A stretch of 64,000 nt of DNA, from the NCBI RefSeq assembly GCF_024700885.2, contig NZ_CP117016.1. One strand, given 5' to 3'. How positions within the stretch are numbered: position 1 is the stretch's first letter; each line of letters starts with the position of its first letter. The position numbers and the translations under genes are program-made. Positions 24,388 to 48,270 of the stretch are shown one piece after another. Source of the stretch: Escherichia coli. Lineage in GTDB: Bacteria > Pseudomonadota > Gammaproteobacteria > Enterobacterales > Enterobacteriaceae. Under the pieces are notes generated by a model. That model had not been told where the DNA came from, made no database searches, and was given only the letters and a program-made list of their open reading frames with translations.

Positions 24388-25293
24388 ATGCGAGGAAAAA
24401 TACCTAAAACGGAGCTGCTGGTGACTTTTGAGGTCGTCGCACGTCATGAAAGTTATACCAGAGCGGCAGAGGAGTTAGCGTTAACCCAAAGTGCAGTATT
24501 CAGACAAGTGAGTGCGCTGGAGGAATTTTTACATACTCCGTTATTTTCACACTCTAAAAAACGTATTTTTCTTAATGATGCAGGGAAGTATTACCTGGGG
24601 ATAGTAAAAGAAACATTAAATAAGCTGGAACGCGATACCAATACCATTATGACCTGGCAGCCTACGGTTCAGGTTATTGAACTTGCCGTGAATCCTACGT
24701 TTAGTACCCACTGGTTAATCCCAAATTTACATGAATTCACAAAGTTACATCCCGATATTATTGTTAATATTCATTCTTTAGCTAATAACGGCGATTTTCT
24801 TAATCGGGAGTACGATGCTGTCATTATGCGCGAAAATTTTTGCGCGCCCTGGGCGGAAGTAGAATATCTCTTTGAAGAGGAGATTTTGCCGGTATGCAGC
24901 GGCAGTTTGCTTGCAATGTCCGATCAAAAACTGTCAGTGGCAGAACTGCTTACAGAGTTACCACTTCTGCATCAAAGTACCCGTATTACTGGCTGGGAAG
25001 AGTGGTTTGCCTTATCTGGCGTTAGCAGTCCGCTGGTCAACAACGGACCACGTTTCGATTTGCTTTCAATGCTGATTGCCGCCGTGCGCTCGAATCTCGG
25101 CGTGGCGCTGTTACCTCGTTTCGCTATTCAACATGATTTGGATAGTGGCGATATGGTGATCCCCTGTGATGTGCCTATTCGTACCGGTAATCGTTTTATT
25201 ATGACGTGGCAGGAAGAGAAGTCTGACTCACCGCACTTGCAGCAATTTCGTGAATGGTTGCTGGCGAAATCGGTCGTACCGCAGGAGATGTAA
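24388..25293 (+). CDS. LysR-family transcriptional regulator, 301 aa
   Basis: N-terminal HTH (ELALTQSAVFRQVSALEEFL) and LysR substrate-binding-like C-terminal domain; convergent with the distal end of the methylaspartate operon. Confidence 0.85.
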   Translation: MRGKIPKTELLVTFEVVARHESYTRAAEELALTQSAVFRQVSALEEFLHTPLFSHSKKRIFLNDAGKYYLGIVKETLNKLERDTNTIMTWQPTVQVIELAVNPTFSTHWLIPNLHEFTKLHPDIIVNIHSLANNGDFLNREYDAVIMRENFCAPWAEVEYLFEEEILPVCSGSLLAMSDQKLSVAELLTELPLLHQSTRITGWEEWFALSGVSSPLVNNGPRFDLLSMLIAAVRSNLGVALLPRFAIQHDLDSGDMVIPCDVPIRTGNRFIMTWQEEKSDSPHLQQFREWLLAKSVVPQEM

Positions 25294-25326
25294 AACCTGC
25301 GCCTGGCGGGATGCCAGACGCAGTTA

Positions 25327-25929
25327 TTACCAGTCGATACCCGGCTGGGCCTGAATGCCGTTATCAAAAGCATGTTTGACGGGGCGGATTTCGCTTACCG
25401 TATCCGCCATTTTTAATATCTGACTGTGGCAACCGCGTCCGGTGACAATGACACTTTGTTGTGCCGGGCGGTTTTGCAGAGAAGCGATCACTTCTTCGGT
25501 GTCCAGATAATGGTAAGCCAGCATATAGGTCAGCTCATCAAGCACCACTAAGTCGTAACGCTTGTCAGCCAGCATCCGTTTGCTTTCCGACCAGACCTCT
25601 TTCGCCGCGTCGATATCCGCTTGCCGGTTCTGTGTCTCCCAGGTAAAACCGGTTCCCATAATATGAAACTCAACCCCCAGCGGCTGGAGAAGGTTGTATT
25701 CACCGTTGTCCCATTGCCCCTTGATGTACTGCGCAACCCCCACCGTTTTGCCATGACCCACCGCGCGCGTCACAGTACCAAACGCGGCAGTGGATTTCCC
25801 TTTGCCGTTGCCGGTGAAAACAATCAAGATCCCTTTTTTCTCTATCGCCGCCGCGACGCGCGTATCGACCTGTTCCTTCAATTTCTGCTGGCGCTGCACA
25901 TGCCGTTCAGTTGAAATTCGCGCTTCCAT
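25327..25929 (-). CDS. ATP:cob(I)alamin adenosyltransferase (CobA/BtuR family paralog), 200 aa
   Basis: Strong resemblance to E. coli BtuR as I recall it (IIVFTGNGKGKTTAAFG P-loop, VVLDELTY, VITGRG, SELRPVKHAF motifs); last gene of the minus-strand operon. Confidence 0.85.
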   Translation of the reverse strand: MEARISTERHVQRQQKLKEQVDTRVAAAIEKKGILIVFTGNGKGKSTAAFGTVTRAVGHGKTVGVAQYIKGQWDNGEYNLLQPLGVEFHIMGTGFTWETQNRQADIDAAKEVWSESKRMLADKRYDLVVLDELTYMLAYHYLDTEEVIASLQNRPAQQSVIVTGRGCHSQILKMADTVSEIRPVKHAFDNGIQAQPGIDW

Positions 25930-25938
25930 TCATTTTCC

Positions 25939-27591
25939 TTAATGTCCCGCAGGGCAACTGGCGCAGCGGTGTTGCTGCTCAAACTGACTAAAGAAATTAT
26001 TGCCTTTATCATCTACCAGGATGAATGCGGGTAAATTTTCCACTTCCATCATCCACACCGCTTCCATACCCAGCTCCGGGTATTCCAGGCAACGCAGACT
26101 TTTGACATATTCTTGCGCCAGTAACGCAGCTGCACCGCCAATACTTCCCAGATTGAAGCCGCCATGTTTGTGACAGGCATCGGTGACCTGCTGGCTGCGG
26201 TTACCTTTCGATAACATCACCAGACTGCCGCCAGCCGCCTGGAAGGTATCGACATAACCGTCCATTCGTCCACCCGTGGTTGGACCCAGTGAACCGCAGG
26301 CCATGTTCTCCGGTGTTTTCGCCGGGCCAGCGTAATAGACAATATGATGCTTCAGGTAATCCGGCATCGATTCGCCGCTATCCAGCCGCGCTTTTATTTT
26401 GGCATGGGCGATATCGCGCGCCACTACGATGGGACCACTTAACGACACGCGGGTGCCTACCGGTAATCTGGCGAGATCCTGCATCACGTCACGCAACGGA
26501 CGGTTTAGATCCAGCTGTACATGTTGCGCGTGATTTTCTTCCCGCAGTGAGGCTGGAATATATTGCCCCGGATTGTGTTCGAGTTTTTCCAGCCAGATAC
26601 CGTGTTTGTTAATTTTTGCTTTGATATTGCGATCGGCAGAACAGGAGAGCGCCATAGCTATCGGGCAAGAGCCACCGTGACGCGGCAGACGAATGACGCG
26701 AATATCATGAGCGAAATATTTACCCCCAAATTGCGCACCAATACCAAATTGCTGACTGGCGTTGAGCAACGCTTTTTCCAACTCAATATCACGGAATGCT
26801 TGTCCCTGCTCGTTTCCGCTGGTGGGCAAATTGTCGTAATATTTCGTTGAGGCCAGCTTGGCAACTTTTAAGGTTTGATCGGCTGAAAGCCCTCCGACGA
26901 CAAAGGCGATGTGATAAGGCGGGCAGGCAGCGGTGCCCAGCGATTTCATTTTTTCGATTAAAAATGCGGTCAGTTTTTCTGGTTGCAATAGGGATTTTGT
27001 TTCCTGATAAAGCGCGGCTTTATTGGCAGAGCCCCCCCCTTTATTAATACAGAGAAAATGGTACTCATCACCAGCGACGGCGCTGATATCAATCTGCGCC
27101 GGTAGATTGGTTTGCGTATTGACTTCGGTATACATATCCAGTGGCGCATTTTGTGAAAAGCGCAGATTATTTTCCTGAAAAGTGGTGTAAATGCCTTTGC
27201 TTAAGGCTTCGGCGTCGTTACCTCCGGTCCATATCTGTTGCCCTTTACTGGCAACAATAGTTGCGGTGCCGGTATCCTGACAGTTGGGTAATACCCCTTT
27301 TGCTGAGACTTCAGCATTACGTAATAACTGCAACGCAACGTATTTATCATTACTGCTGGCCTGCGGATCGTTAAGAATGCTGGCGACCTGTTGCAAATGA
27401 GCGGAACGTAAGAAAAAAGAGGCTTCATAAAATGCCTGCCGGGCAAGCAGCGTTAATGCTTCAGGAGCGATTTTTATCACTTCTTCGCCGTCTAATTCCG
27501 TTACTGTAATATGTTGATCGCTAATTAATGTATATTCTGTACCGTCTTTATTTTGTAGATACGGTTCTTGCCAGATAAATGGTTTGGACAT
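25939..27591 (-). CDS. fumD: Class I (FumA/FumB-like) fumarate hydratase family protein, probable mesaconase, 550 aa
   Basis: FumA-sized single polypeptide of the Fe-S hydro-lyase family; location in the glutamate mutase/methylaspartase cluster corresponds to the mesaconase/fumarase FumD described for E. coli O157:H7 (from memory). Confidence 0.8.
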
Positions 27592-27698: not shown

Positions 27699-28979
27699 TC
27701 AGGGCAGAGCAACGTTCGATTCATTGGGTTTTAATGCTTTACCCCGACAACCCTCGCCGAAATGTTCGCCTTCCCACCGACTCACCAACGCAGCGCCCAT
27801 TGCGTTGCTCATGACGTTTGTCGCGGAACGCCCCATATCAAGGAACGGATCAACGCCCATCAGCAAGATCAGCCCCGCTTCCGGAATATTGAACTGGTTG
27901 AGCGTGGCGGCGATAACCACCATTGAGGCGCGTGGTACGCCAGCCATTCCTTTCGAGGTCAACATCAGGATCAACAGCATGGTGATTTGCTCACCGATGG
28001 ATAAATGGATATTGCAGGCCTGGGCGATGAAAACTGTGGCGAAGGAGCAGTAGGCCATTGATCCAACGAGATTAAATGAGTAGCCAATGGGTAAGACAAA
28101 GCTGGCAATTTTGGGGGAAACGCCAAATTGCTCCAGTTTTTCAAGCGTTCCCGGAAAAGCAGCTTCAGAACTGGATGTGGTAAATGCCAGCAGGGCGGGT
28201 TCCGAAAGGGCACGGGTCAGGCGTCTGATGCAGGGGCCGACATAAACGATGGCCAGACCGATAAGCAGCACCCAAAGTAACAACATGGTGAAATAAAATT
28301 CACCCATAAAGATCCCGGCGCTCACCATAACTGCCAGTCCTCGTTCAGCAATCAATGCTGAAATAGCGGCGAATACGGTCAGGGGAGCGAAGAGCATGAC
28401 GTAGCCAGTGAGCTTTAACATGGCATGTGCCAGCGAATCTAAGGCGTGAACGATGGCGCTGCCTTTCTCACCAATCGCCGTCAGGCTACAGCCGAGGAAA
28501 ATTGAGAACACCACGATTTGCAAAATTTCATTGTGCGCCATGGCATCGACAATGCTGGTGGGGAAAGCATGCGAAATAAATACTTTTAGCGTAAAGGGTT
28601 CTGACGCGACCACTCCGGTGGTTTCGGCACCGTGTGCAACAAAATTAATTCCTGTGCCTGGCATGAAGAAATTTACCGTTATCAAGCCTAAGGCAATTGA
28701 CAGCAATGAGGCGCAAATAAATAAAAAGAGTGTTTTAGAAAAAATACGACCAAGGGCTTTGGCATCGCCCATTTTAGCAATACCTACCACCAGGGTAGAG
28801 ACCACTAACGGAGCGATAATCATTTTTATCAGTCGTAAGAAAATCGTCGTGAATATCGATATTTCTTGCGCATAGAGTTTTGCTGTTTCCGGTGAAGCAG
28901 TGTTATTGATCACTACGCCGATAATCATTCCAAGTACCAGCGCCAAAAGAATCATCGTGGTTAAACTTATTTTCTTCAT
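27699..28979 (-). CDS. Dicarboxylate/amino acid:cation symporter (DAACS, GltP/DctA-like) family transporter, about 426 aa
   Basis: Multi-pass hydrophobic ORF with the family-typical N-terminus; start placed at MKKISL (ATG at 28979), preceded by GGAGGA 7 nt upstream; the ORF-track start at 29000 is a GTG. Confidence 0.8.
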   Translation of the reverse strand: MKKISLTTMILLALVLGMIIGVVINNTASPETAKLYAQEISIFTTIFLRLIKMIIAPLVVSTLVVGIAKMGDAKALGRIFSKTLFLFICASLLSIALGLITVNFFMPGTGINFVAHGAETTGVVASEPFTLKVFISHAFPTSIVDAMAHNEILQIVVFSIFLGCSLTAIGEKGSAIVHALDSLAHAMLKLTGYVMLFAPLTVFAAISALIAERGLAVMVSAGIFMGEFYFTMLLLWVLLIGLAIVYVGPCIRRLTRALSEPALLAFTTSSSEAAFPGTLEKLEQFGVSPKIASFVLPIGYSFNLVGSMAYCSFATVFIAQACNIHLSIGEQITMLLILMLTSKGMAGVPRASMVVIAATLNQFNIPEAGLILLMGVDPFLDMGRSATNVMSNAMGAALVSRWEGEHFGEGCRGKALKPNESNVALP

Positions 28980-29139
28980 TTTTTCCTCCATCAGGTGCAC
29001 GGCGATAAATCAGAATCAGGAGAAGTAGATGCCCGAATAAAAATTCAGGCATCTACCTGCTATTACAACCTTACAAATAGCTGAAGTGTTGAACTGCAAT
29101 AAGTGACGGGATGTCAGTTGGCTAAAAGTGTTCGGATTT

Positions 29140-29457
29140 TTACAAATCGAAACTCATATTTAATAAAGGTGCATGTTGCTGTGCACCATAGACATCATTG
29201 TCACCTACATTCCCGGAGATAATATCTCGTGGCATGACGATTTTTACTGCGTTAGAAGGATCAAACCAGACAATACGATGAATAAAGTCAGGTTCAACAT
29301 GATATAAGCGCGCGATCAGTTCTGGGGTTAATTGCCCTGATGATTTAACTCGCTCATAGTTTTCTTTGGTTTTAAATAAAATATCTAAAACCAGTTCGTA
29401 AGGTCCGGCATTTTTCGAACGAATGACTTGCGCCAGTGAGACAATTGACTGTTTCAT
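29140..29457 (-). CDS. DUF4387-like small protein, 105 aa
   Basis: Small soluble ORF whose start overlaps the stop of the upstream DUF1446-like gene by 4 nt; family assignment from recollection of the DUF1446/DUF4387 pair. Confidence 0.6.
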   Translation of the reverse strand: MKQSIVSLAQVIRSKNAGPYELVLDILFKTKENYERVKSSGQLTPELIARLYHVEPDFIHRIVWFDPSNAVKIVMPRDIISGNVGDNDVYGAQQHAPLLNMSFDL

Positions 29458-30824
29458 GCCTGAACTCCTTCTGGCGTCACCTGTTCAATATGGAAATCAA
29501 AACGCAGAGCGTCGTTGGCTTCAATCAGGTGATATATGGAAAATTCGTATACCGGCCCGCCCTGAATATCAGAAGGGGAGAACGGGAATGCCAGGTTGCC
29601 TGCGGTAGCGATGCGGTTTTCATAGCCGTAGTGCAGCATAGTAGAGCGCACCAGCGAGCAAACGCTATTGGCAATATCCTGGGTCGGTGCAACTACATCA
29701 AGGACAATCCCCAGCTCATGCCCGGCAGTTTGCATCGGTTCATGGTCGCCCATCACCCCGTTTTTGCCGTACAGGTGGAAATTGATGCGAATGCTGTCAT
29801 CGTCGAGCGACAGGTTACGCGAAACGCTGGTTTTGACTTCATCGATGATTTTATCGATCCCGGCGATCATGATCGGGTCGCGCGTTCCGGCGATGGTCAG
29901 ACAGCGGAAGCCCACCCGTCGCGCACCTTCCAGTTTCAGGGCATACGGCGTTTCTTCATGCTTAGAACCGCTGACGTACACTTCGCCGTCATTGACCGCT
30001 TTAAATGTGCAGCCTTTCAGGTTCAACACGCCGCCAGGTCCTGGCAGGAAGTAGGGATCGGATTTCTCATACAGTGTGTGTGCAGCTGCTGACGTTTCGG
30101 TAAATTTACGCTTCGGATTAAATGTCTTCAGCGTAAAGCCGTTGTCATCAATGATGCCCATCGCACAGTCAGAGCCTGAGCCGGGCGTTGCGGCGATTGC
30201 CGCGCATTCAAGGATTTTCCCACAATGCAGCGCCAGACCTTCATCAAAGCCTTGCATGATCGGTAGCGCAGCAAAGCAGGCCGGGTCGTAAGCGCGCCCG
30301 CCCAGCACCACTTGCGCGCCTTCTTTCAGCGCCTGCTGGAAGGGTTCGATGCCCATTTGCGCGACGATATACGTACTTTCGTCAATCGCGTCGTGGGTTA
30401 ACGGCGGGACAAAATCCAGCGCCGTGATTTTGCCGTTATCCAGCGCCTGGTGGACGATGGCTTTGTCAACGTCTGCCGGGATCAGCGCCATCGAGAACGA
30501 GAGGTGCTCTTCCCGGGCAATCTCATGAATTATTTCTCGGCACCACTCCAGGTGTGGAGCGGCACCAGAACCGCCGGCCGTTCCGATCACCACCGGTATA
30601 TTATTTTGCACGCCTGCGGTGATCATATAGCGCAGATCGCGCTTGACCCCTGCGCGATCGGTAAACGGTTTGCCCGCCCCGAGGTAGTGGGGGCCAGGAT
30701 CGGAAGAGCCAGCATCAACGGCGATCAGATCGGGCGATTCTGCCATCGCTTTGCGGAAGCTCTCCTCCGGGAATCCATACCCGAGGATTGCCGTAGGCGA
30801 TAAGACTTTAAAAGAACGAGCCAT
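29454..30824 (-). CDS. AtuA-like (DUF1446) family protein, 456 aa
   Basis: About 450-aa soluble ORF resembling acyclic-terpene-utilisation AtuA-like proteins (my recollection); 3 nt downstream of the methylaspartase gene in the same operon. Confidence 0.6.
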   Translation of the reverse strand: MARSFKVLSPTAILGYGFPEESFRKAMAESPDLIAVDAGSSDPGPHYLGAGKPFTDRAGVKRDLRYMITAGVQNNIPVVIGTAGGSGAAPHLEWCREIIHEIAREEHLSFSMALIPADVDKAIVHQALDNGKITALDFVPPLTHDAIDESTYIVAQMGIEPFQQALKEGAQVVLGGRAYDPACFAALPIMQGFDEGLALHCGKILECAAIAATPGSGSDCAMGIIDDNGFTLKTFNPKRKFTETSAAAHTLYEKSDPYFLPGPGGVLNLKGCTFKAVNDGEVYVSGSKHEETPYALKLEGARRVGFRCLTIAGTRDPIMIAGIDKIIDEVKTSVSRNLSLDDDSIRINFHLYGKNGVMGDHEPMQTAGHELGIVLDVVAPTQDIANSVCSLVRSTMLHYGYENRIATAGNLAFPFSPSDIQGGPVYEFSIYHLIEANDALRFDFHIEQVTPEGVQA

Positions 30825-30827: not shown

Positions 30828-32069
30828 TTAATCCTTAGCCTGCAACAGCGCGATAGTACGATTCATTTCGTTGAAGACGATATCGAGGCCTTCGTCAAAG
30901 CCCATCCCTGGCTTTACCAGCATACGCATAGGGCGAGCGGCAAGGGCGATGTGGACACAGGTGCGGGCACTGACATCAGTTTCATTGCAGGTGCCGCCCT
31001 GGTACGCTTCCATGCTGTGGCTATTGCAGTAAAGAACCGCATCGACGATGTTGTGAATACTGCCCAGATCCGGGGTTTTGATTTGCACCATGTGACAACT
31101 GGCGGCATCAGTAAAATCAACAATATCCTGGTAGGTGTTACACCATTCATCGGCCACAATTTTCACGCCGGAACCGAGGCGCGTCAGCTCTTTGGTAATC
31201 GCGGTCAGCAGGCGAATTTGATCGGGCTTGTTACCGGCATCGACCGGACCTTCAATGTAGAGCGGCAGGCCTTGCGCTTCTTTTTCCAGGCTGGCGATGT
31301 ATTGCGCACAGCGAAGCGGATCCATATCGAAGATCAGACCGATAGTGCCGTATACATCGATGTGCAGGGTAGGGTGGTAGCGTGCGCTGGTGCGCTTGCT
31401 CAGAATACGATCCGACAGCCAGCGGACATATTCGCGCAGTTTTTCACCTTTAAAGCCCAGTTTCTCTTCGACGTTATTAATCAGTGCATGGGGCAGCACG
31501 TCGATGCCCTTAAGGATCATCTTATCGACGGCGATATATCGATCGTCGCCGCTCTGACCAAATAATGGAATGGATTCCGCCACGCGTGGCAACTGCCATT
31601 CATCACAGACCACTTCAGTTTTCAGACGGCCGGTTGCCAGCGCGGTAGCATCAAGCAGCGCCTGTGATAATCCGTAGCGCACGGCGGTATGCAGCAAGTT
31701 GCCGTCAATACGCAATTTGTCGAAGAAACGGGCATTCGGCAGGAAAGCATCTACATCGCGGCCTACCAGTAATGGCTTGATATGGTCGTTGAGGAACGGA
31801 ATAAAGTGCTCTGCGAGGAACAGTGGATCGCGACCACCTGCCCCGGAATACTGTACGGCAGCACAGTCACCTACGGCGACCGCGCCGTTTTCCAGAATCA
31901 ACTGTACCGATACGCACTCCCCGGCCTGACGTACGGCGTTAAACCCCTGTGTTACTGGCTCCCCGGTATAAAAAAAGCCGTCGTGACCCGCTCCGTTTTT
32001 TATCGCCTGCTGGTCATCGAAATAGAATGAGGAGTAGCCAGCGGTGAACAGGGCCTGTTTTATTTTCAT
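30828..32069 (-). CDS. 3-methylaspartate ammonia-lyase (methylaspartase, enolase superfamily), 413 aa
   Basis: N-terminus MKIKQALFTAGYSSFYFDDQQAIKNGAGHDGFFYTGEPVT and length are typical of methylaspartase; start overlaps the glmE stop. Confidence 0.9.
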   Translation of the reverse strand: MKIKQALFTAGYSSFYFDDQQAIKNGAGHDGFFYTGEPVTQGFNAVRQAGECVSVQLILENGAVAVGDCAAVQYSGAGGRDPLFLAEHFIPFLNDHIKPLLVGRDVDAFLPNARFFDKLRIDGNLLHTAVRYGLSQALLDATALATGRLKTEVVCDEWQLPRVAESIPLFGQSGDDRYIAVDKMILKGIDVLPHALINNVEEKLGFKGEKLREYVRWLSDRILSKRTSARYHPTLHIDVYGTIGLIFDMDPLRCAQYIASLEKEAQGLPLYIEGPVDAGNKPDQIRLLTAITKELTRLGSGVKIVADEWCNTYQDIVDFTDAASCHMVQIKTPDLGSIHNIVDAVLYCNSHSMEAYQGGTCNETDVSARTCVHIALAARPMRMLVKPGMGFDEGLDIVFNEMNRTIALLQAKD

Positions 32070-33514
32070 TATGGTCTTCCTATTAATTTACTGTGGGATA
32101 CAGCATTGATGTCATCTACAACCATCTGGAATGTCGGTTGGCGTCCTTCAAAGCGTGCGCGTTCCGCAACGTAATCGTGGTGGAGGTCGAGAATATCTTT
32201 TGGCAATGGAACGGCTCCGGCTTCCAGTACGCGTATCGCGCCGGTGTTGTCACGGACCGGAAGAATTTTGCCCGCGTTGCAGGCGGCTGGCGCAAACGGC
32301 ACATCCAGTACGCCCGCTTCAAATGCCAGCACCGTACCGCGCGCAATATCACCATTACCCAGTTCGAACACTTTATTCAGTACCGCGCGAACCTCGCTCT
32401 TAATCAGTTCAATTTCCAGTTCAACCGCAGGGCAAGGCGGGAATTTCTGCTCGTTGACCATGTTGAGCATCTGGCGGGAGGCTTTCAGCCCCTGAATGTT
32501 GGCAGCGGCAGTCGGGATGCCCCAGGCTTCGTGCGGACTTTTGGTGATGACTTTGGTGGCACCAGACATCCCCGCGACGGCTGCACCCCAGGAGATAATG
32601 GCGAACGCTTTCGATTCGTCTTCCGGAAAGCCGCCCATCCACTGGTGAAACACGGTACTTAATTCATAGTCGGTATAGCCATAGCTCTGAAAGTATTCGT
32701 GTGCAAGTTCACGCAGAGACTGGATCGCCGCGACATCCTGCGTCAGGCTGCCGACCTGTCCATAACCAACGGTGATAGATTTCACACCCTGTTCCAGCGC
32801 CAGTAATCCTTCGATTATCGCGATAGAGTGCGAGATAAACGGCGGGATCAGCGTACCCGTTAGTGGGCCAAACGGTTCGCGGTTGATGCGGATCCCGTGT
32901 TCTTCATACATCCCCATTAAACGATCGCAGTACTGCCAGTCGCGGATCGATTTTTCCAGCGTTACGCGCTTGGCATACGGAATATTGTAGGAAATGCCGC
33001 CGCCTTCATAACTGGTAAAGCCGCTGGCCATCGAGATTTCAGCCAGCAGACGCGCATCTGGCGTGCCGTGGCGGATCTGTAGCGGTTTTTGCAAAGTTTC
33101 GGTGAGGCGACGGCAAGCTGCGACGCCGTGGTTAACTACCGGTAAACCGTTCAGTTTAGAGGTTCCGGCTTCGATGGATTTTTTAATCCCTACAGCCGCT
33201 TCTTCGTACCGATTCAGACGGGTATATGCATCGATGGTGCTCGGCAGCAGATCGCACTCTTCTTGTGGTGTTTTCAGTAGTTCGATGTGTTCGTCCATCA
33301 GCGCCACGCCTGCGCGCGGTTGGCTAAGAGTTTTACCTTCCTTGTCTGCTTTCAGCAGGGCAAGAGAGAAGCGTTTATGCTCAGGAATGGTTTGTTGGTA
33401 TTTAACGCCATCTTCAAAGTTTTCAACATCCTTGCCGGTTTCCCAGGTTTTCAGTACCTGTTGCCGCTCGGTCATGAATTCGTCATGGGTTAATTTCTTA
33501 TTTCGAAGTTCCAT
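32069..33514 (-). CDS. glmE: Glutamate mutase epsilon (catalytic, E) subunit, 481 aa
   Basis: Length and sequence consistent with methylaspartate mutase E chain; sits between glmL and the methylaspartase gene as in clostridial glmS-glmL-glmE clusters. Confidence 0.88.
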   Translation of the reverse strand: MELRNKKLTHDEFMTERQQVLKTWETGKDVENFEDGVKYQQTIPEHKRFSLALLKADKEGKTLSQPRAGVALMDEHIELLKTPQEECDLLPSTIDAYTRLNRYEEAAVGIKKSIEAGTSKLNGLPVVNHGVAACRRLTETLQKPLQIRHGTPDARLLAEISMASGFTSYEGGGISYNIPYAKRVTLEKSIRDWQYCDRLMGMYEEHGIRINREPFGPLTGTLIPPFISHSIAIIEGLLALEQGVKSITVGYGQVGSLTQDVAAIQSLRELAHEYFQSYGYTDYELSTVFHQWMGGFPEDESKAFAIISWGAAVAGMSGATKVITKSPHEAWGIPTAAANIQGLKASRQMLNMVNEQKFPPCPAVELEIELIKSEVRAVLNKVFELGNGDIARGTVLAFEAGVLDVPFAPAACNAGKILPVRDNTGAIRVLEAGAVPLPKDILDLHHDYVAERARFEGRQPTFQMVVDDINAVSHSKLIGRP

Positions 33515-33749
33515 TGATTGCAGCCTTAATTGTTATAGGGTTAAGCATTGAATACTGGTGCGCGCGGCGGCCAGTGGATCGACTCTGGCGACGTTTGCCA
33601 GCAGTGGTAATAGCCCCCGGGAATCGCGGTAATATTCAAATTCGGTCGGTAAGAGAATGCGTTTACCGTCGTCGTTTAACTCGCGGTATTTCAACCAGTG
33701 ATGCATATCGAACTGACTGGCACGCGAGAGCCATCCGCCGGAACCAACG

Positions 33750-33757
33750 ACTTTACG
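33750..33757. repeat. Target-site duplication (left copy) ACTTTACG
   Basis: 8-bp direct repeat immediately flanking the IS26 left inverted repeat. Confidence 0.85.
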
Positions 33758-34577
33758 GGCACTGTTGCAAATAGTCGGTGGTGATAAACTTATCATCCCC
33801 TTTTGCTGATGGAGCTGCACATGAACCCATTCAAAGGCCGGCATTTTCAGCGTGACATCATTCTGTGGGCCGTACGCTGGTACTGCAAATACGGCATCAG
33901 TTACCGTGAGCTGCAGGAGATGCTGGCTGAACGCGGAGTGAATGTCGATCACTCCACGATTTACCGCTGGGTTCAGCGTTATGCGCCTGAAATGGAAAAA
34001 CGGCTGCGCTGGTACTGGCGTAACCCTTCCGATCTTTGCCCGTGGCACATGGATGAAACCTACGTGAAGGTCAATGGCCGCTGGGCGTATCTGTACCGGG
34101 CCGTCGACAGCCGGGGCCGCACTGTCGATTTTTATCTCTCCTCCCGTCGTAACAGCAAAGCTGCATACCGGTTTCTGGGTAAAATCCTCAACAACGTGAA
34201 GAAGTGGCAGATCCCGCGATTCATCAACACGGATAAAGCGCCCGCCTATGGTCGCGCGCTTGCTCTGCTCAAACGCGAAGGCCGGTGCCCGTCTGACGTT
34301 GAACACCGACAGATTAAGTACCGGAACAACGTGATTGAATGCGATCATGGCAAACTGAAACGGATAATCGGCGCCACGCTGGGATTTAAATCCATGAAGA
34401 CGGCTTACGCCACCATCAAAGGTATTGAGGTGATGCGTGCACTACGCAAAGGCCAGGCCTCAGCATTTTATTATGGTGATCCCCTGGGCGAAATGCGCCT
34501 GGTAAGCAGAGTTTTTGAAATGTAAGGCCTTTGAATAAGACAAAAGGCTGCCTCATCGCTAACTTTGCAACAGTGCC
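33758..34577 (+). mobile_element. IS26 (IS6 family), complete 820-bp copy
   Basis: 14-bp terminal inverted repeats GGCACTGTTGCAAA (33758-33771) and TTTGCAACAGTGCC (34564-34577); internal transposase matches IS26 Tnp as I recall; flanked by 8-bp direct repeats. Confidence 0.93.
33821..34525 (+). CDS. tnpA: IS26 transposase Tnp26 (DDE), 234 aa
   Basis: MNPFKGRHFQRDIILWAVRWYCKYGISYRELQEMLAERGVNVDHSTIYRWVQRYAPEMEK is the canonical IS26 transposase N-terminus (from memory); start placed at the ATG 18 nt inside the ORF-track start. Confidence 0.93.
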   Translation: MNPFKGRHFQRDIILWAVRWYCKYGISYRELQEMLAERGVNVDHSTIYRWVQRYAPEMEKRLRWYWRNPSDLCPWHMDETYVKVNGRWAYLYRAVDSRGRTVDFYLSSRRNSKAAYRFLGKILNNVKKWQIPRFINTDKAPAYGRALALLKREGRCPSDVEHRQIKYRNNVIECDHGKLKRIIGATLGFKSMKTAYATIKGIEVMRALRKGQASAFYYGDPLGEMRLVSRVFEM

Positions 34578-34585
34578 ACTTTACG
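34578..34585. repeat. Target-site duplication (right copy) ACTTTACG
   Basis: 8-bp direct repeat immediately flanking the IS26 right inverted repeat. Confidence 0.85.
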
Positions 34586-35748
34586 CACGGTTGTCAGGTC
34601 ACGTCCCATCTGTAAATCGACATTGCCGACGCAGGTGCAGACCTCTTTTTTGGTGCCCGCATGTCTTTCGGTGGCATAACCCACACACAGTCCGGCCAGG
34701 ACGGTATCGAAATATTTTTCTTCTGCATTCGCGGGTAAGTAGTCGGGATGAGCGACTAGATGGCGGAGGTAATGATAAAAAGCGTCCAGCTGTGCGGGTT
34801 GCTGAGCAAAATTCACATTGACTAACTCTTTCGCACTTTCACCAACCACCATTGCCGAGACGCGCATTCCCAGATCGCCTTCCACCGTCCGTTTCACGAA
34901 GGGTTCCGGTACGCCGTGTAAAACGGTGTCGGGCGAGAGCGTGTTGGCACAGGCGGAATAGACATCGGTGGTTGCGCCACCCATGTCGATCAGCATGAAC
35001 TCTTTCCAGCTGTGATCGACGTTACTGATTGCCTTAACCAGTTCAAAGACCGTCCATGGTGTCGGCATTGGTTCTTCGCCTGTTTTATCAACAATGACAT
35101 CCAACCCTTTCCCTTTAACGATGCGTTTAAGGAATATGTCGCAGATAGCCTGGCGTGCAGCTAAAGGGTTCGGATGGTCAAGATCGGGCAGAACGTTGTC
35201 GACGATGGTCAGGTCTTTATGCCCGAGGATCTCCTGCACCTCGTCCTGAATATCCCGGTTTCCGGCATAAATAATGGCGCAGTCGAGTTTGGATTCTGCC
35301 AACACACGGGCGTTATTCAGTCCGTAGCTTTCTTCTCCGCCATCGGTGCCGCCGGTGAACAAGAGAATATCGGGCTGCGTTTCTTCCAGTGCCTGGATAT
35401 CACGGCGGTTCAGCTTGTAGGCGTAATATTGCGCAATTTTAGCACCCGCAGAGTGAGCGGTTACTTTCGCGGTTTCCAGGGTGATAGAAGGCACCAATCC
35501 CATTGCGGCAACCGCCAGCCCACCTTTGGCAGAGGAGGAATACTTCAATGCAACCTCACCACTGTTTAACAGGGGGAGGGCATTATCTACGTTTAACACC
35601 TGGTCCAGGCTGGAGAAAAACCCCTTCGCCAGATGATGGGTGGTGGTTGGGGTCAGAACGTGGTTAACCAACGTTAACGCGTCCCCCTCCCGGGTGAAGA
35701 GGGCTGCTTTGGTCCACGTCGAACCAATATCGACAGAGACGATTTGCA

Positions 35749-36198
35749 TCAGATTGCCTCTTCAAGAATGCGAGTATCAACGTCATGACGTTGGTTGATA
35801 TCGTGGGCCATCAGCTGACAAACATCTTCTAAGTCATGACTTGGGGAAAAGACGCGATCAAATCCCATCTCTTTGAACTTGGTTTCCACGTCAGCGAAGT
35901 CATGTTTTCCGACCACCAGGTTACCGCCCACATAGAGCAGGATGTTACCCAGCCCACGCTCGATGCAGCGTTCGCGCATGCCCAGACAATCGATATCGCC
36001 ATGCCCATAGATAGAGGAGACGACAATCGCGTCAGCACCAGTTTCAATGGCAGCATCAATATATTCGTCCTGGCTGACCATTACGCCCAGATTAATAACT
36101 CTGAAGTCATGGTTGCTAAAAACGCGGTCCAGAACTTTATTGCCTACTGCATGGCAGTCCGCGCCAATAACGCCAATCACAAGTGTTGCTTTCTTCAT
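35749..36198 (-). CDS. glmS: Glutamate mutase sigma (B12-binding, S) subunit, about 149 aa
   Basis: [24 protein letters not shown] contains the DxHxxG cobalamin-binding signature; start at ATG 36198 preceded by AGGA; stop overlaps the glmL start (ATGA). Confidence 0.88.
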
Positions 36199-36745
36199 GG
36201 GTAATCCTTTGTAAGACAGAGAGTAAAATAAGTTACACACGTCGTATTTATGGCCGCTCATAACGGCACAGGTTTAATATCACAGGAGTGTCTTTATCTG
36301 ACCGTAATGTTGCAATTGATCTATTTTCAAAATGTCTTTCGGGAAATGATTGTTTAAAGTGTGTTTTCAAATTCTCATTTTAATTCAGTGTGTTATGTCA
36401 ACTAATGTCATGAATGTTAAATTTTTAAAATTAACTTGATTTGATGTATTGAGATAATTGTGATCAACTTCTAATTTGCATTTTTGTGACGTGGCTTTAG
36501 CCATGAGTAAATACATTTCATAAAAGTTAAGTCGAATTTCACTGCAATTCATCTCTGCTTAATGTAAAAATAATGTTGAAAATAACAAATAATTAATGAT
36601 TCATGCGAATTATGACCTTTGTTAGCTCTTTTGATTTTTCGTAAAAAAGAAAAGTACATGAAGGTGCTACCAGTACGAGTAACGTTAATCAAAAGTTTTA
36701 TTACGTCTGGCAATAACGCAGGCCATTTTTCGCGACAGGAGGGAT

Positions 36746-37168
36746 TTAATCAGTATAATCCTCATACAATAGGTCAGGATTTACTGAACCGTTAACGGGG
36801 ATTTGGTGTTGAAATTTAGAAATGGCGGAGTCAATTAATGAAGACAATATCGGAAAAATGACAGTGTCAGAATTAATTTCAATTAATCCTTCTCGTTGTT
36901 GACCAAAAAAGATATTTATCTTGATTTCATTTGTACTACGGCAATCAATATGCAGTAATTTTTGATCGCTGAGATTTTCTGTTTCATAAATGTTTTTGGC
37001 GATAGTCGGATGTATTGATGCCAGACATCTGCTCAGATAAGCCAGATCCTTTAGGGAACACCCCGCTGAGTAGAGGATGTCAGAGAATTTTTGTGTGTCA
37101 ACTGTTGTCTCTGAAGCGTATGTTGCATTGACAGGAAGGGTGTTGAAAGAGATTTGAGATGGGATCAT
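36746..37168 (-). CDS. Hypothetical protein, 140 aa, no recognisable family
   Basis: ORF in a markedly AT-rich block; co-directional with and 80 bp downstream of the 314-aa orphan ORF; coding status unverified. Confidence 0.45.
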   Translation of the reverse strand: MIPSQISFNTLPVNATYASETTVDTQKFSDILYSAGCSLKDLAYLSRCLASIHPTIAKNIYETENLSDQKLLHIDCRSTNEIKINIFFGQQREGLIEINSDTVIFPILSSLIDSAISKFQHQIPVNGSVNPDLLYEDYTD

Positions 37169-37248
37169 TATTTAAATCTTTCCGTGAGTAATAAAAATTA
37201 ATCCCCGGGCATTGTTTAGCAATATTTGCCACAGGGAATATATAAAAA

Positions 37249-38193
37249 TTAAAGTATTTGATTGGCATCGGTTAACTGATCAATAACCAGTGCCAGATTG
37301 GTAAACATTTTGAAAAAGCGATACTGGCTCGGAATATCTCTTTCAAAGACGAAACATTCAATGTCATTGTTTGAAAAATAAAGGACTAGTGTTGCTGATT
37401 CGTCAGGAAAAATATGGAAATATATCTGGTTACCAGAAGGAGGATAGTCCAGATGAAGGGTATCTTTGCCCGTCACATACCTGTTGTGGTCGTGGATGCT
37501 GCGCTCACACTTCATCAGAGGTGTCATGATACTCATGTATTCATCTGATGTTAATATATTAAAATCACCATCCATTTTAAAGAAACGATAAAGTAACAGT
37601 ACATCCTCTTGCGTAACCGGTTCGTTTGTTTTTAGAGGGAAATAAGTGGGAACCAGAAGATGAGGTTCTAATCTATTTTGTTGAGCGCTATAACTAAATT
37701 TGAACATAAATTCCGGATCGCTCATTAATTGAGCGACATAATTATGCCTGGCTTCAAAAATTTTAACTTTTATCAGGTTAAATAAGTCTGTTTCGTTATC
37801 CTGTATTAAAAGACATTGGCCATAGCAGCCAGGCTTTTTTTCATTATAAGCAGAAACGGTTATTCTGTCAGGAGTGTCAACGTTATATCCAAAAGCCAGA
37901 TAGTGACCTTCCTCATCGAGATTTGTTTCCAGGTTATTTAAATTCATCACATGAAGTGTTTGCAATGCTGATTCAATGAGCTGTTGACTCTCTGAGGTAA
38001 ATGTTTCGCGCTGCGTTGTATAAAGTGTATCGATTCCAACGACTATCCGATGTGGGTCAAGGATGGCGGCAATCATCTTTATTACCTGCACAGTCATGGG
38101 TGATGTCATTGATTCTTTATCTGTTTTTAGAGGATCATTAGATGGCCAACCTGAGAAGCGATTGACAGCAGAACTGATATTATCAGGACTCAT
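37249..38193 (-). CDS. Hypothetical protein, 314 aa, no recognisable family
   Basis: Longest ORF in an AT-rich region with no competing frame; no signal peptide or transmembrane segment evident; no motif I can assign. Confidence 0.55.
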   Translation of the reverse strand: MSPDNISSAVNRFSGWPSNDPLKTDKESMTSPMTVQVIKMIAAILDPHRIVVGIDTLYTTQRETFTSESQQLIESALQTLHVMNLNNLETNLDEEGHYLAFGYNVDTPDRITVSAYNEKKPGCYGQCLLIQDNETDLFNLIKVKIFEARHNYVAQLMSDPEFMFKFSYSAQQNRLEPHLLVPTYFPLKTNEPVTQEDVLLLYRFFKMDGDFNILTSDEYMSIMTPLMKCERSIHDHNRYVTGKDTLHLDYPPSGNQIYFHIFPDESATLVLYFSNNDIECFVFERDIPSQYRFFKMFTNLALVIDQLTDANQIL

Positions 38194-38647
38194 AGCAGCA
38201 ACCTCATTGTAATCAAGCGAGGCGCTGAGCGTACTCGGCTATAGAAAAACTAACTTGCAAAAATCGCTCATTTTTCATTTATCAGGCGAAAGTGGTCTCT
38301 GTTCACTCAGAAACAATCACTCCCGCTAAGTCATACCTGTATCATCGATACATTTAAGTGATTATTACTAATGAAACAATAACATAACGGGCTTACGGCC
38401 GGTGCTCATAAACGCAACAATCAATTAACTTTGATAAAAATATGTTATGTAAAATAGCAACAAATTGGCTAATCTAATCAATTGGTATTATAAAAAGTGG
38501 ATAAGGCGGTTCTGTTAAATAAAACACTGGTTTTTTATCTATACCTTTTCATTGTAATAATTGTGTTGCATAAATATTTCACAATAAATTAACAATAAAA
38601 TTACCAATGATCTATGGTTTATACATAATTAACATATTTGGTTGGTT

Positions 38648-38661
38648 TTGATATAAATCAA
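38648..38661. promoter_or_regulatory. FNR-type site TTGATATAAATCAA in the cydA upstream region
   Basis: Perfect TTGAT-N4-ATCAA palindrome about 340 bp upstream of cydA; cydAB is known to be FNR/ArcA regulated. Confidence 0.55.
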
Positions 38662-38998
38662 TTTTTAATTCTTGAAAAAAATCTGCAAAACACGATAAAT
38701 TGTCGTAGATCAAATTGGTGAGATCGTGACAATTTCGCTATAAATTGATCACTGTCGAAAAATGCAAATTTGCTCAATAAAAACCTGTTTATTGTAAGGA
38801 TTTTGCGGCGTAATATAATTACGGGATCAATTTGGTTTATTCATTAACATATTTGTAACTTTTTTATCATTGTCTTTTCCTCTTTTGATGAAATGGCAAC
38901 GATAGAGGCGAGCAAATAATTTTGTATTGGGGCATGCGTGTGACCCTTTCTAACGGGGTTCACTCTCGGAGTCTTCATGCGATGAGCAAGGAGTCATG

Positions 38999-40567
38999 AT
39001 GTTAGATATAGTCGAACTGTCGCGCTTACAGTTTGCCTTGACCGCGATGTACCACTTCCTTTTTGTGCCACTGACGCTCGGTATGGCGTTCCTGCTGGCC
39101 ATTATGGAAACGGTCTACGTCCTTTCCGGCAAACAGATTTATAAAGATATGACCAAGTTCTGGGGCAAGTTGTTTGGTATCAACTTCGCTCTGGGTGTGG
39201 CTACCGGTCTGACCATGGAGTTCCAGTTCGGGACTAACTGGTCTTACTATTCCCACTATGTAGGGGATATCTTCGGTGCGCCGCTGGCAATCGAAGGTCT
39301 AATGGCCTTCTTCCTCGAATCCACCTTTGTAGGTCTGTTCTTCTTCGGTTGGGATCGTCTGGGTAAAGTTCAGCATATGTGTGTCACCTGGCTGGTGGCG
39401 CTCGGTTCAAACCTGTCCGCACTGTGGATTCTGGTTGCGAACGGCTGGATGCAAAACCCAATCGCGTCCGATTTCAACTTTGAAACTATGCGTATGGAGA
39501 TGGTGAGCTTCTCCGAGCTGGTGCTTAACCCGGTTGCTCAGGTGAAATTCGTTCACACTGTAGCGTCTGGTTATGTGACTGGCGCGATGTTCATCCTCGG
39601 TATCAGCGCATGGTATATGCTGAAAGGTCGTGACTTCGCCTTCGCTAAACGCTCCTTTGCTATCGCTGCCAGCTTCGGTATGGCTGCCGTTCTGTCTGTT
39701 ATTGTTCTGGGTGATGAATCTGGTTACGAAATGGGCGACGTGCAGAAAACCAAACTGGCTGCTATTGAAGCCGAGTGGGAAACGCAACCTGCGCCTGCTG
39801 CCTTTACTCTGTTCGGCATTCCTGATCAGGAAGAGGAGACGAACAAATTTGCGATCCAGATCCCTTACGCGCTGGGCATCATTGCAACGCGTTCCGTGGA
39901 TACTCCAGTTATCGGCCTGAAAGAACTGATGGTGCAGCATGAAGAACGCATTCGTAACGGGATGAAGGCGTACTCTCTGCTCGAGCAACTGCGTTCTGGT
40001 TCTACCGACCAGGCGGTTCGTGACCAGTTCAATAGCATGAAGAAAGACCTCGGTTACGGTCTGCTGCTGAAACGCTATACGCCAAACGTGGCTGATGCGA
40101 CTGAAGCGCAGATTCAACAGGCAACCAAAGACTCCATTCCGCGTGTAGCGCCGCTGTACTTCGCGTTCCGTATCATGGTGGCGTGTGGCTTCCTGCTGCT
40201 GGCAATCATCGCGCTCTCTTTCTGGAGTGTCATCCGCAACCGCATTGGCGAGAAAAAATGGCTGCTGCGCGCCGCGCTGTACGGTATTCCGCTGCCGTGG
40301 ATTGCTGTAGAAGCGGGCTGGTTTGTGGCTGAATATGGCCGCCAACCGTGGGCTATCGGTGAAGTGCTGCCGACAGCTGTGGCGAACTCGTCACTGACCG
40401 CAGGTGATCTCATCTTCTCAATGGTGCTGATTTGCGGCCTGTATACCCTGTTCCTGGTGGCAGAATTGTTCTTAATGTTTAAATTTGCACGCCTCGGCCC
40501 AAGCAGCCTGAAAACCGGTCGCTATCACTTTGAGCAGTCTTCCACGACTACTCAGCCGGCACGCTAA
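38999..40567 (+). CDS. cydA: Cytochrome bd-I ubiquinol oxidase subunit I, 522 aa
   Basis: [41 protein letters not shown] matches CydA; start at the second ATG. Confidence 0.96.
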
Positions 40568-46583: not shown

Positions 46584-47129
<546 letters not shown>

Positions 47130-47138
47130 GAGAATTGC

Positions 47139-47930
47139 ATGAGCAGTAACTTCAGACATCAACTATTGAGTCTGTCGTTACTGGTTGGTATAGCGGCCCC
47201 CTGGGCCGCTTTTGCTCAGGCACCAATCAGTAGTGTCGGCTCAGGCTCGGTCGAAGACCGCGTCACTCAACTTGAGCGTATTTCAAATGCTCACAGCCAG
47301 CTTTTAACCCAACTCCAGCAACAACTCTCTGATAATCAATCCGATATTGATTCCCTGCGCGGTCAGATTCAGGAAAATCAGTATCAACTGAATCAGGTCG
47401 TGGAGCGGCAAAAGCAGATCCTGTTGCAGATCGACAGCCTCAGCAGCGGTGGTGCAGCGGCGCAATCAACCAGCGGTGATCAAAGCGGTGCGGCGACATC
47501 AACGACGCCGACAGCTGATGCTGGTACTGCGAATGCTGGCGCGCCGGTGAAAAGCGGCGATGCAAACACGGATTACAATGCAGCAATTGCGCTGGTGCAG
47601 GATAAATCCCGCCAGGATGACGCAATGGTGGCATTTCAGAATTTCATCAAAAATTACCCTGATTCAACTTACCTGCCAAACGCCAATTATTGGCTGGGTC
47701 AGTTAAACTACAACAAGGGTAAAAAAGATGATGCGGCGTATTATTTTGCTTCGGTAGTGAAAAACTATCCGAAGTCACCGAAGGCTGCAGATGCGATGTT
47801 TAAAGTCGGCGTCATCATGCAGGACAAAGGTGACACCGCAAAAGCGAAAGCCGTATACCAGCAGGTTATCAGTAAATACCCTGGTACTGATGGCGCTAAA
47901 CAGGCGCAAAAACGTCTGAACGCGATGTAA
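47139..47930 (+). CDS. cpoB: Cell division coordinator CpoB (YbgF), TPR protein, 263 aa
   Basis: Signal peptide, coiled-coil and TPR-like C-terminus; follows pal. Confidence 0.94.
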   Translation: MSSNFRHQLLSLSLLVGIAAPWAAFAQAPISSVGSGSVEDRVTQLERISNAHSQLLTQLQQQLSDNQSDIDSLRGQIQENQYQLNQVVERQKQILLQIDSLSSGGAAAQSTSGDQSGAATSTTPTADAGTANAGAPVKSGDANTDYNAAIALVQDKSRQDDAMVAFQNFIKNYPDSTYLPNANYWLGQLNYNKGKKDDAAYYFASVVKNYPKSPKAADAMFKVGVIMQDKGDTAKAKAVYQQVISKYPGTDGAKQAQKRLNAM

Positions 47931-48094
47931 TGCATAACACACGACCAGAAGTCGCATTATTTCTGGTCGTGTCGTGCGAATCATAAGCAGTTGAGTGATC
48001 TACATCGAAATTTTTGTTGCGCTCAAGTCTGAAATCAGTAATATATGCCGCCGTTGCCACGGGATATCAAACAAACCGAAAGCAACGAAAAAGT

Positions 48095-48170
48095 GGGTCG
48101 TTAGCTCAGTTGGTAGAGCAGTTGACTTTTAATCAATTGGTCGCAGGTTCGAATCCTGCACGACCCACCA
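48095..48170 (+). tRNA. lysT: tRNA-Lys (anticodon UUU)
   Basis: 76-nt GGGTCGTTAGCTCAGTTGGTAGAGCAGTTGACTTTTAATCAATTGGTCGCAGGTTCGAATCCTGCACGACCCACCA; anticodon loop CTTTTAA; encoded CCA. Confidence 0.97.
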
Positions 48171-48198
48171 ATCGCTAAGGTGGACGCGGTAGTAAAAC

Positions 48199-48270
48199 GT
48201 GAAGGATAACGTTGCGTCAGCAACGGCCCGAAGGGCGAGACGAAGTCGAGTCATCCTGCACGACCCACCA
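48199..48270 (+). repeat. Spacer repeat ending in a duplicated tRNA-Lys 3' end (copy 1)
   Basis: GTGAAGGATAACGTTGCGTCAGCAACGGCCCG...TCATCCTGCACGACCCACCA recurs at 48694-48763; the last 20 nt equal the tRNA-Lys acceptor/T-arm end. Confidence 0.8.

Follow-up and report, generated by a model that had tools for sequence, protein, structure and literature searches.

The 64,000-nucleotide stretch of Escherichia coli DNA analysed here (the window) carries, within the sucD-cydA island, a methylaspartate (glutamate mutase) gene cluster on the minus strand, in which an IS26 element lies inside glmL (Table 1). The glmS, glmE, mal and fumD genes are full length and all score above their equivalog cut-offs. 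The genes from glmE through mal and atuA to the DUF4387 gene are closely packed, with stops and starts that overlap or are separated by gaps of 3 nt at most. The leader of the cluster contains neither a B12 riboswitch nor any other Rfam element at gathering score, and no RfaH ops element, a suppressor of polarity; an ops-like 11/12 match inside glmS is at chance level.

Table 1. Features of the methylaspartate cluster and of its IS26 insertion, in the order of cluster transcription (positions in the window).
Feature	Coordinates	Strand	Remarks
Leader and promoter region, AT-rich	36199..36745	-	32-38% GC; untouched by IS26
glmS, methylaspartate mutase subunit S	35749..36198	-	intact; upstream of IS26
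glmL, truncated	34559..35749	-	391 native residues + ALLQS + stop; TIGR01319 positions 1-386 of 456
Target-site duplication ACTTTACG, 8 bp, right copy	34578..34585		single copy at the empty site of relatives
IS26, complete, 820 bp	33758..34577	+	inverted repeats; 100% identity to annotated copies
IRR, GGCACTGTTGCAAA	34564..34577	-	exact repeat match
tnpA (Tnp26), 234 aa	33821..34525	+	NF033587, 275.6 bits
IRL, GGCACTGTTGCAAA	33758..33771	+	includes palindromic TTGCAA 33765-33770, the outward -35
Target-site duplication ACTTTACG, 8 bp, left copy	33750..33757		single copy at the empty site of relatives
TTGGTT, -10 position at 17-nt spacer	33742..33747 (read 33747->33742)	-	not usable; -2.2 bits
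glmL 3' fragment, orphan, residues 389-462	33533..33757	-	TIGR01319 positions 384-456, 121.9 bits
glmE, methylaspartate mutase subunit E	32069..33514	-	intact; first gene downstream of IS26; L83P
mal, methylaspartate ammonia-lyase	30828..32069	-	start overlaps glmE stop
AtuA-family (DUF1446) gene	29454..30824	-	
DUF4387 gene	29140..29457	-	last of the tightly packed genes
RNA hairpin, strong, in the DUF4387-transporter gap	29022..29058	-	-24.5 kcal/mol, z = -5.8
Dicarboxylate/amino acid:cation symporter gene (GltP/DctA-like)	27699..28979	-	
fumD, class I fumarase/mesaconase	25939..27591	-	profile match; PMC4682846
cobO, corrinoid adenosyltransferase	25327..25929	-	
Intrinsic terminator, cluster end	25297..25323	-	-22.7 kcal/mol
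LysR-type regulator gene	24388..25293	+	convergent with the cluster

The sequence GGCACTGTTGCAAA occurs exactly twice, against a chance expectation of 0.05, and the two copies form perfect 14-bp inverted repeats that delimit the 820-bp element. Over these 820 bp it is 100% identical to copies annotated as IS26 on more than 5,000 plasmids. Most of its length is covered by a single DDE transposase ORF, tnpA, which scores far above the cut-off of 125 of NF033587, the IS6 transposase model. Length, inverted repeats, DDE transposase, 8-bp direct repeats and reference identity all agree with IS26. The presence and coordinates of IS26 given in the initial annotation are borne out by the exact inverted repeats, the NF033587 match, the target duplication and the empty site in relatives; the element is also, as claimed there, antisense to the glm operon, since tnpA lies on the plus strand and the glm genes on the minus strand.

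A search of 5,426 complete E. coli genomes did not find the insertion in any, and its junction 41-mer gave 0 matches in metagenome contigs. The nearest genome, that of MLI114, has an empty site and 1 SNP in 28 kb, so the insertion is very recent. In strain 1190, with 6 SNPs in 24.9 kb, the exact site is likewise empty and ACTTTACG is present once, and the flanks of the element are collinear with both strains, as in a simple insertion. On present knowledge of IS26, the element would have arrived by formation of a replicative cointegrate with a replicon that bore IS26; RecA-dependent resolution of the cointegrate would then have left one IS26 copy with the 8-bp duplication. Of the 1,135 genomes in which the cluster was found, 1,121 have an unbroken block from glmS to mal, so that disruptions big enough to break the block are rare, small frameshifts being invisible to a contiguity count.

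IS26 splits glmL at codon 391, and the truncation removes 71 C-terminal residues of GlmL (TIGR01319 positions 387-456). The lost part is conserved, judging from the orphan fragment, which still scores 121.9 bits over 73 residues. Against NF040745 the truncated GlmL scores 458 bits, below the cut-off of 475. By analogy with the diol dehydratase reactivase, GlmL is presumed to be the reactivating chaperone of the B12-dependent glutamate mutase (PMC4682846); sequence search returned no solved GlmL structure. From the sequence, this truncation is itself the main lesion, which the initial annotation underplayed, and with or without polarity it would be expected to impair the pathway.

Reading outward on the minus strand, CAGTGCC comes after the -35 TTGCAA (33770->33765), with the flank CGTAAAGTCGTTGGTTCC next. 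The hexamer at a 17-nt spacer, TTGGTT, has 2/6 matches to the -10 and no A at position 2, while spacers of 16 and 18 nt give GTTGGT (-4.5 bits) and TGGTTC (-8.4 bits). The -35 of an IS26 hybrid promoter is thus present, but a -10-like hexamer of the TAnnnT class is missing at 16-18 nt. In a 5'RACE-validated IS26 hybrid promoter, TTGCAA is followed after 17 nt by CATAAT (PMC11156391). By hand calculation with the same PWM, CATAAT scores about +5 bits, and the left end totals ~1.9 bits vs ~9 bits for TTGCAA-17-CATAAT; this PWM is rough, and scans of this kind miss activator-dependent promoters. As no -10 stands in the flank at the spacing that TTGCAA requires, the IS26 left end forms no hybrid promoter at the sequence level, and the earlier description of the flank as reading about TTGGTT, a poor -10, 16-18 bp after TTGCAA was accurate.

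The promoter prediction on the minus strand that the initial annotation had proposed yielded nothing credible across 33480-34620, where the best PWM candidates are at chance, and a consensus promoter scan of minus strand 32900-36700 returned none. The PWM scan comprised ~5,700 position-and-spacer combinations on the minus strand of IS26 and the glmL 3' fragment; its best internal candidate, TTCGCC-16-TAAAAT (7.9 bits), was rejected, as about one such match is expected by chance. A cryptic promoter in IS26 or the glmL 3' fragment could nevertheless drive glmE and the downstream genes apart from native regulation, which would amount to decoupling or activation rather than silencing. The IS26 left end does contain an extended -10-like TGATAAGTT at 33795->33787, the target duplication forms a TAAAGT 2 nt outside IS26, and the relative IS257 has a left-end outward promoter (PMC7986276). 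None of the candidates, however, has an acceptable -35 or spacing: TAAAGT lies only 9 nt from TTGCAA, with CCGACT as the -35 at the correct distance, and was rejected. The candidates score 5-8 bits, a level reached by about one random position per kilobase in this window, and the consensus scan was empty; moreover, a review of the IS6 family cites an outward promoter for IS257 only, and for IS26 only hybrid promoters (PMC7986276). We therefore consider a cryptic promoter very improbable. More speculative, and credited with only the slenderest of chances, is an undescribed weak outward antisense promoter at the IS26 left end, for example at TGATAAGTT, that would uncouple glmE-mal-atuA-like-DUF4387 from a silent native promoter; if true, an amino-acid fermentation module that is normally cryptic would be constitutively on at a low level, not silenced. 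With no hybrid or credible internal promoter found, glmE expression is expected to depend on read-through across IS26, as had been proposed.

On a read-through transcript, ribosomes would halt at the premature glmL stop (34561-34559), 19 nt into IS26, and the next well-placed start is the glmE ATG at 33514, 1,045 nt on. The RNA between them would be naked antisense-IS RNA with C>G-skewed stretches, and two bubbles were identified, at 34025-33829 (length 120 window positions, area 776) and at 33732-33514 (length 142 window positions, area 959). Both exceed the sizes (>78 bp or >700) above which C>G bubbles always gave Rho termination in vitro, a criterion that is predictive only (PMC6144790). 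Rho-dependent polarity sets in when translation is uncoupled, and antisense RNA that is not translated is among the usual substrates of Rho (PMC12360218). The premature stop, the 1,045 untranslated nucleotides and the two large bubbles make Rho-dependent polarity on glmE-mal-atuA-like-DUF4387 likely: Rho would probably end most transcripts before glmE and lower the expression of these genes. Silencing is likely to be partial, since the read-through path has no strong intrinsic terminator (best hairpin ~ -11 kcal/mol vs -22.7 for the operon's own terminator), and with C/G ratios of 1.1-1.7 the skew is moderate, so that a sizeable share of transcripts may get as far as glmE. A literature search found nothing direct on measurements of antisense-IS26 polarity.

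The same features bear on the alternative that antisense IS26 is crossed mostly unterminated, with glmE and the downstream genes near wild-type and the loss of full-length GlmL as the sole defect. This would fit the moderate skew and the lack, along the minus strand of IS26, of any hairpin convincing as an intrinsic terminator, and glmE has a ribosome-binding site of its own, with an AAGG Shine-Dalgarno sequence. The glmL frame is also open, antisense through IS26, from 34443 to the native stop, because tnpA codons 1-207 are free of TTA, CTA and TCA (P ~0.02), and translation begun there would shield the RNA. However, the 1,045 nt contain no credible translated ORF; a 271-aa ORF (33533-34348) in which antisense IS26 and the GlmL C-terminus share one frame begins at an ATG (34348) without a Shine-Dalgarno sequence and was treated as chance. 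Together with the two bubbles above the in vitro size and the suitability of untranslated antisense RNA for Rho, this makes efficient read-through unlikely.

The initial annotation had treated all downstream genes as a single transcript, which is unsafe. A 160-bp AT-rich gap separates the DUF4387 gene from transporter-fumD-cobO, and the hairpin within it (Table 1) may be a transcription-unit boundary or an attenuator. As this strong hairpin intervenes, a polar effect on the transporter, fumD and cobO is doubtful.

The further proposal that the pathway is cryptic in this strain is indistinguishable from baseline, as neither expression of the intact cluster nor methylaspartase activity was seen in O157:H7 ATCC 700728 in any condition tried (PMC4682846). 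A literature search on cluster expression in E. coli found nothing direct on this point. The insertion may accordingly have been a neutral hit in a cluster already silent or impaired in the lineage, whether through AT-rich promoter silencing, dependence on some inducing signal or the earlier L83P in GlmE, a reading compatible at the molecular level with GlmL truncation and Rho polarity. Besides the unexpressed O157:H7 cluster, the low GC content of the leader and upstream region (31-39%) agrees with it, as does the L83P allele, which is common to this strain and IS-free MLI114, is absent from the other 759 genomes matched, and replaces a Leu conserved in Clostridium GlmE. The substitution thus predates the insertion, and decay after insertion is ruled out as its origin. 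Its effect on GlmE is putative, and an AlphaFold model of GlmE from a 6-sequence alignment had a pLDDT of 33.5, too low to place residue 83. On the other hand, the contiguity of glmS to mal in nearly all carriers speaks for a functional cluster maintained by selection in nature, and earlier work cited in PMC4682846 describes methylaspartase activity as widespread among enterobacteria. A neutral hit is possible, but we hold it to be somewhat unlikely.

Taken together, these results favor an explanation that we rate as reasonably probable: a canonical IS26, inserted very recently into glmL, has truncated GlmL, as the sequence shows, and would impose Rho polarity on glmE-mal-atuA-DUF4387, with no compensating promoter supplied by IS26 at the sequence level. 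In this strain the glutamate -> methylaspartate -> mesaconate branch most likely does not function, and the event is an ordinary insertional knock-out that involves no new mechanism. The main use of the finding is in strain annotation, where a probably non-functional glutamate mutase/methylaspartate branch matters for metabolic modelling or phenotype prediction; beyond this strain it matters little. MLI114 and the IS26 strain do form a natural near-isogenic pair, which could serve to measure antisense IS26 polarity and to seek inducing conditions for a poorly understood cluster.

Classical polar insertions are those of IS1, IS2 and others in gal and lac. The locus described here resembles them in having an IS in a promoter-proximal gene, a premature stop and a long untranslated stretch, and also in its predicted Rho sites before tightly coupled downstream genes (principle: PMC12360218); it differs in that polarity here is predicted from the sequence, for an IS26 in antisense orientation. 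IS26 hybrid promoters, such as that of IS26/In37 for aac(6')-Ib-cr and blaOXA-1 and others for aphA7, blaSHV-2a and blaKPC, use the same element and the same outward -35 TTGCAA, which lies 7 nt from the end of the element (PMC11156391, PMC7986276), but they have a resident -10 (CATAAT/TATAAT) 17 nt downstream and a mapped start, where the present locus has TTGGTT. A metabolic parallel is IS5075 in ureC of Klebsiella pneumoniae, likewise a strain-specific IS in a metabolic operon that inactivates one gene, with downstream polarity suspected (PMC8269217). There, loss of the urease phenotype was demonstrated and the insertion recurs in many genomes, whereas the IS26 insertion has no counterpart in 5,426 genomes and is known from its sequence. 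The cluster itself has the gene content shown by Kronen & Berg (2015, their Fig. 5) for E. coli O157:H7 and other Enterobacteriaceae, namely glmS-glmL-glmE-mal-DUF1446/AtuA-DUF4387-gltP-fumD-cobA/cobO and a LysR regulator. Gene order and the sucD-cydA position are the same as in IS-free E. coli 1190 and MLI114, the O157:H7 locus compared spanning the transporter gene to cydA only. What sets the present cluster apart from that of Kronen & Berg is a glmL split by IS26 and a GlmE with the rare L83P.

The 24.4-36.2 kb region of this stretch of E. coli chromosome is an accessory island, flanked by sucD on one side and cydA on the other, and houses the gene cluster of the methylaspartate (mesaconate) pathway, a route of glutamate fermentation. 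Its gene content is the same as that of the cluster described in E. coli O157:H7 (Kronen & Berg, PMC4682846), and the cluster is present in 1,135 of 5,426 genomes (21%).

Features of the methylaspartate cluster and C>G bubbles on the read-through path
Feature	Coordinates	Strand	Basis or value
glmS	35749-36198	-	family assignment
glmL	between glmS and glmE	-	interrupted by IS26
glmE	32069-33514	-	family assignment
mal, methylaspartate ammonia-lyase	30828-32069	-	family assignment
AtuA/DUF1446-family gene	29454-30824	-	family assignment
DUF4387 gene	29140-29457	-	family assignment
GltP/DctA-like symporter gene	27699-28979	-	family assignment
fumD, class I fumarase/mesaconase	25939-27591	-	family assignment
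cobO	25327-25929	-	family assignment
Strong terminator at cluster end	25323-25297	-	-22.7 kcal/mol
LysR-type regulator gene	24388-25293		convergent with cluster
C>G bubble	34561-34409	-	length 76 window positions, area 505 % x bp
C>G bubble	34025-33829	-	length 120 window positions, area 776 % x bp
C>G bubble	33732-33514	-	length 142 window positions, area 959 % x bp

The element that interrupts glmL is a canonical IS26. Its inverted repeat GGCACTGTTGCAAA has exactly two occurrences, at 33758-33771 (+) and 34564-34577 (-), against a chance expectation of 0.05; the element measures 820 bp from end to end, shows 100% identity to IS26 copies carried by over 5,000 plasmids and encodes a transposase of 234 aa (33821-34525, + strand). 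An 8-bp direct repeat, ACTTTACG, lies on both sides (33750-33757 and 34578-34585). IS26 moves via cointegrate formation, and after RecA-dependent resolution one copy flanked by new direct repeats stays behind (PMC7986276). With its transposase on the plus strand and the glm genes on the minus strand, the element is antisense to the operon and inside glmL, as the initial annotation had described.

An exact empty site of 873 bp (1,701 - 820 - 8) is found in many of the 5,426 genomes, and IS26 occupies this site in none of these complete E. coli genomes. Apart from the insertion, the strain differs from strain 1190 by 6 SNPs in 24.9 kb and from MLI114 (human stool, Mali) by a single SNP in 28 kb. 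Because close relatives carry the empty site, no complete genome shares the insertion and the junction 41-mer has no match in a metagenome scan, these comparisons point to a very recent, strain-specific insertion, with no sign of adjacent rearrangement. The only nucleotide difference from 1190 inside the cluster, at position 33267 (codon 33266-33268, -), changes Leu83 of GlmE to proline; five other E. coli lineages, as well as Clostridium GlmE (6h9e_B), have the leucine. Among 760 matched genomes, the identical 61-mer with the proline allele occurs in one, MLI114; since this relative is free of IS26, L83P predates the insertion, which rules out its reading as decay after the event. A structure model of GlmE from a 6-sequence alignment reached a pLDDT of only 33.5, too low for use.

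In 1,121 of the 1,135 carrier genomes the glmS-to-mal block is unbroken, a count to which small frameshifts are invisible, and disruptions large enough to break the block are therefore rare. At one of 1,137 places the block is plasmid-borne rather than chromosomal. In E. coli O145 RM9872 (locus positions 1-1249 and 2713-4100), the methylaspartase gene and glmL are both annotated as frameshifted pseudogenes, reflecting either a further inactivation that arose independently or errors of assembly.

IS26 and the target duplication together add 828 bp, exactly 276 codons, which preserves the glmL frame across the insertion; within IS26, however, this frame meets stops at 34561, 34555, 34462 and 34444. 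The truncated protein consists of 391 native residues followed by ALLQS-stop, with residues 392-462 lost. Against the GlmL family model, the orphan 3' fragment still reaches 121.9 bits over a match of 73 residues, and the deleted part is thus conserved; the truncated protein, at 458 bits, falls below the GlmL equivalog cut-off of 475. By analogy with diol dehydratase reactivase, GlmL/MutL is seen as a chaperone that reactivates glutamate mutase (PMC4682846); a sequence search returned no solved homologue. We infer that the truncation inactivates GlmL, and this truncation, unweighed in the initial annotation, is the primary lesion. The only long open reading frame between the premature stop and glmE is an antisense frame of 271 codons (ATG 34348 to 33533, -) without a Shine-Dalgarno sequence, which runs through IS26 and, because the insertion and duplication amount to a whole number of codons, continues in frame into the glmL tail. 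It is open because tnpA codons 1-207 are devoid of TTA, CTA and TCA (P about 0.02), which is probably a matter of chance.

The ends of IS26 carry an outward, palindromic -35 hexamer, TTGCAA, 7 nt from the IS tip. In a 5'RACE-validated IS26 hybrid promoter, CATAAT lies 17 nt downstream of TTGCAA (PMC11156391). Outward from the left end, the minus strand reads TTGCAA-CAGTGCC|CGTAAAGTCGTTGGTTCC, and the hexamers at spacings of 16, 17 and 18 nt (GTTGGT, TTGGTT and TGGTTC), all lacking A at position 2, score -4.5, -2.2 and -8.4 bits with a simple, rough position weight matrix (PWM); CATAAT scores about +5 bits by hand calculation with the same matrix. The target sequence gives rise to a TAAAGT, which was rejected as a -10: it is only 9 nt from TTGCAA, and the correctly spaced -35 (CCGACT) is poor. 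A consensus scan of the minus strand over 32900-36700 found no sigma-70-like site, and the best PWM matches between 34620 and 33480, at 5-8 bits, are about chance level for the number of positions. These scans bear out the earlier proposal that IS26 provides no obvious outward promoter, and the flanking sequence indicates that a hybrid promoter is absent there. Outward transcription might instead start at an extended -10-like sequence within the left end (TGATAAGTT, 33795-33787, -), as outward promoters are known for the IS26 relative IS257; this has a low probability, given that the sequence has no recognisable -35 and that the IS6-family review describes only hybrid promoters for IS26 (PMC7986276).

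With a hybrid promoter absent, expression of glmE would depend on read-through across IS26. The first well-positioned start beyond the premature stop is that of glmE itself (ATG 33514, with an AAGG Shine-Dalgarno sequence), 1,045 nt downstream. No strong intrinsic terminator lies on this path; the best candidate, at about 34546, is a hairpin (about -11 kcal/mol) with CUUUUGUCUU behind it, against -22.7 kcal/mol for the operon's own. C>G bubbles were defined following Nadiras et al. with a 78-nt window; in that study Rho-dependent termination occurred in vitro on all templates whose bubble exceeded 78 bp in length or 700 in area (PMC6144790). Of the three notable bubbles in the exposed RNA (see table), the two nearer to glmE are above these values. 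Uncoupled translation exposes Rho sites and silences downstream operon genes (PMC12360218). The untranslated 1,045 nt, the bubbles and the absence of an RfaH ops element from the leader make Rho-dependent polarity on glmE likely, though probably incomplete. Near-matches to ops, of which the window has 8 against 3.3 expected, occur at about chance frequency; an 11/12 match (GGCGGTAACCTG) lies inside glmS at 35917-35928 (-).

In the proposed sequence of events, the glmL stop inside IS26 would leave RNA exposed, Rho would terminate transcription, and less glmE, mal, atuA-like and DUF4387 product would be made; polarity should extend to the last three because the start of each overlaps the stop of the gene before it or lies directly next to it. 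The predicted downstream silencing is thus likely for these four genes, but cannot be assumed for the symporter, fumD and cobO, whose co-transcription with glmS-DUF4387 is not assured. The 160-bp DUF4387-symporter gap (about 40% GC) contains a hairpin (29022-29058, -; 16-bp stem, -24.5 kcal/mol, z = -5.8) that matches the cluster-end terminator in stability but has no clean U-tract; as a terminator, attenuator or stabiliser, it could split the cluster into two units. A second gap, of 107 nt, precedes fumD.

For the intact cluster of O157:H7 ATCC 700728, no expressing condition was found, and methylaspartase was below 0.1 mU/mg (Kronen & Berg, PMC4682846). Given this and the AT-rich leader (31-39% GC, as in the region upstream), only an inducing condition could tell a pathway cryptic in this strain, as earlier suggested, from the baseline. 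The 31-39% GC stretch spans 36000-39000 in general, has the look of horizontally acquired DNA and is likely to be targeted by nucleoid-protein silencing. Two hypothetical genes without a Pfam match (140 and 314 aa; 36746-38193, -) lie in it, in the interval from the glm leader to cydA. Translational coupling links the AtuA/DUF1446 and DUF4387 genes (29140-30824, -) to the methylaspartase gene. Kronen & Berg (PMC4682846) point to the lack of a detected citramalate lyase activity that would settle the fate of citramalate in E. coli, and the pair is a candidate worth examining in this respect. Elsewhere, 47030-48993 (+) holds a CpoB/ybgF thermometer, two RtT elements and an array of seven tRNA genes, for which strain 1190 has the annotations tRNA-Lys and tRNA-Val; these are ordinary features, as in other E. 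coli.

The main value of these observations is for annotation of the strain, which together with MLI114 forms a natural near-isogenic pair for measuring IS26 polarity. Taken together, the insertion is an ordinary knock-out of glmL by a canonical IS26, with Rho-dependent polarity probably acting on the four genes that follow, and nothing in it departs from known biology.
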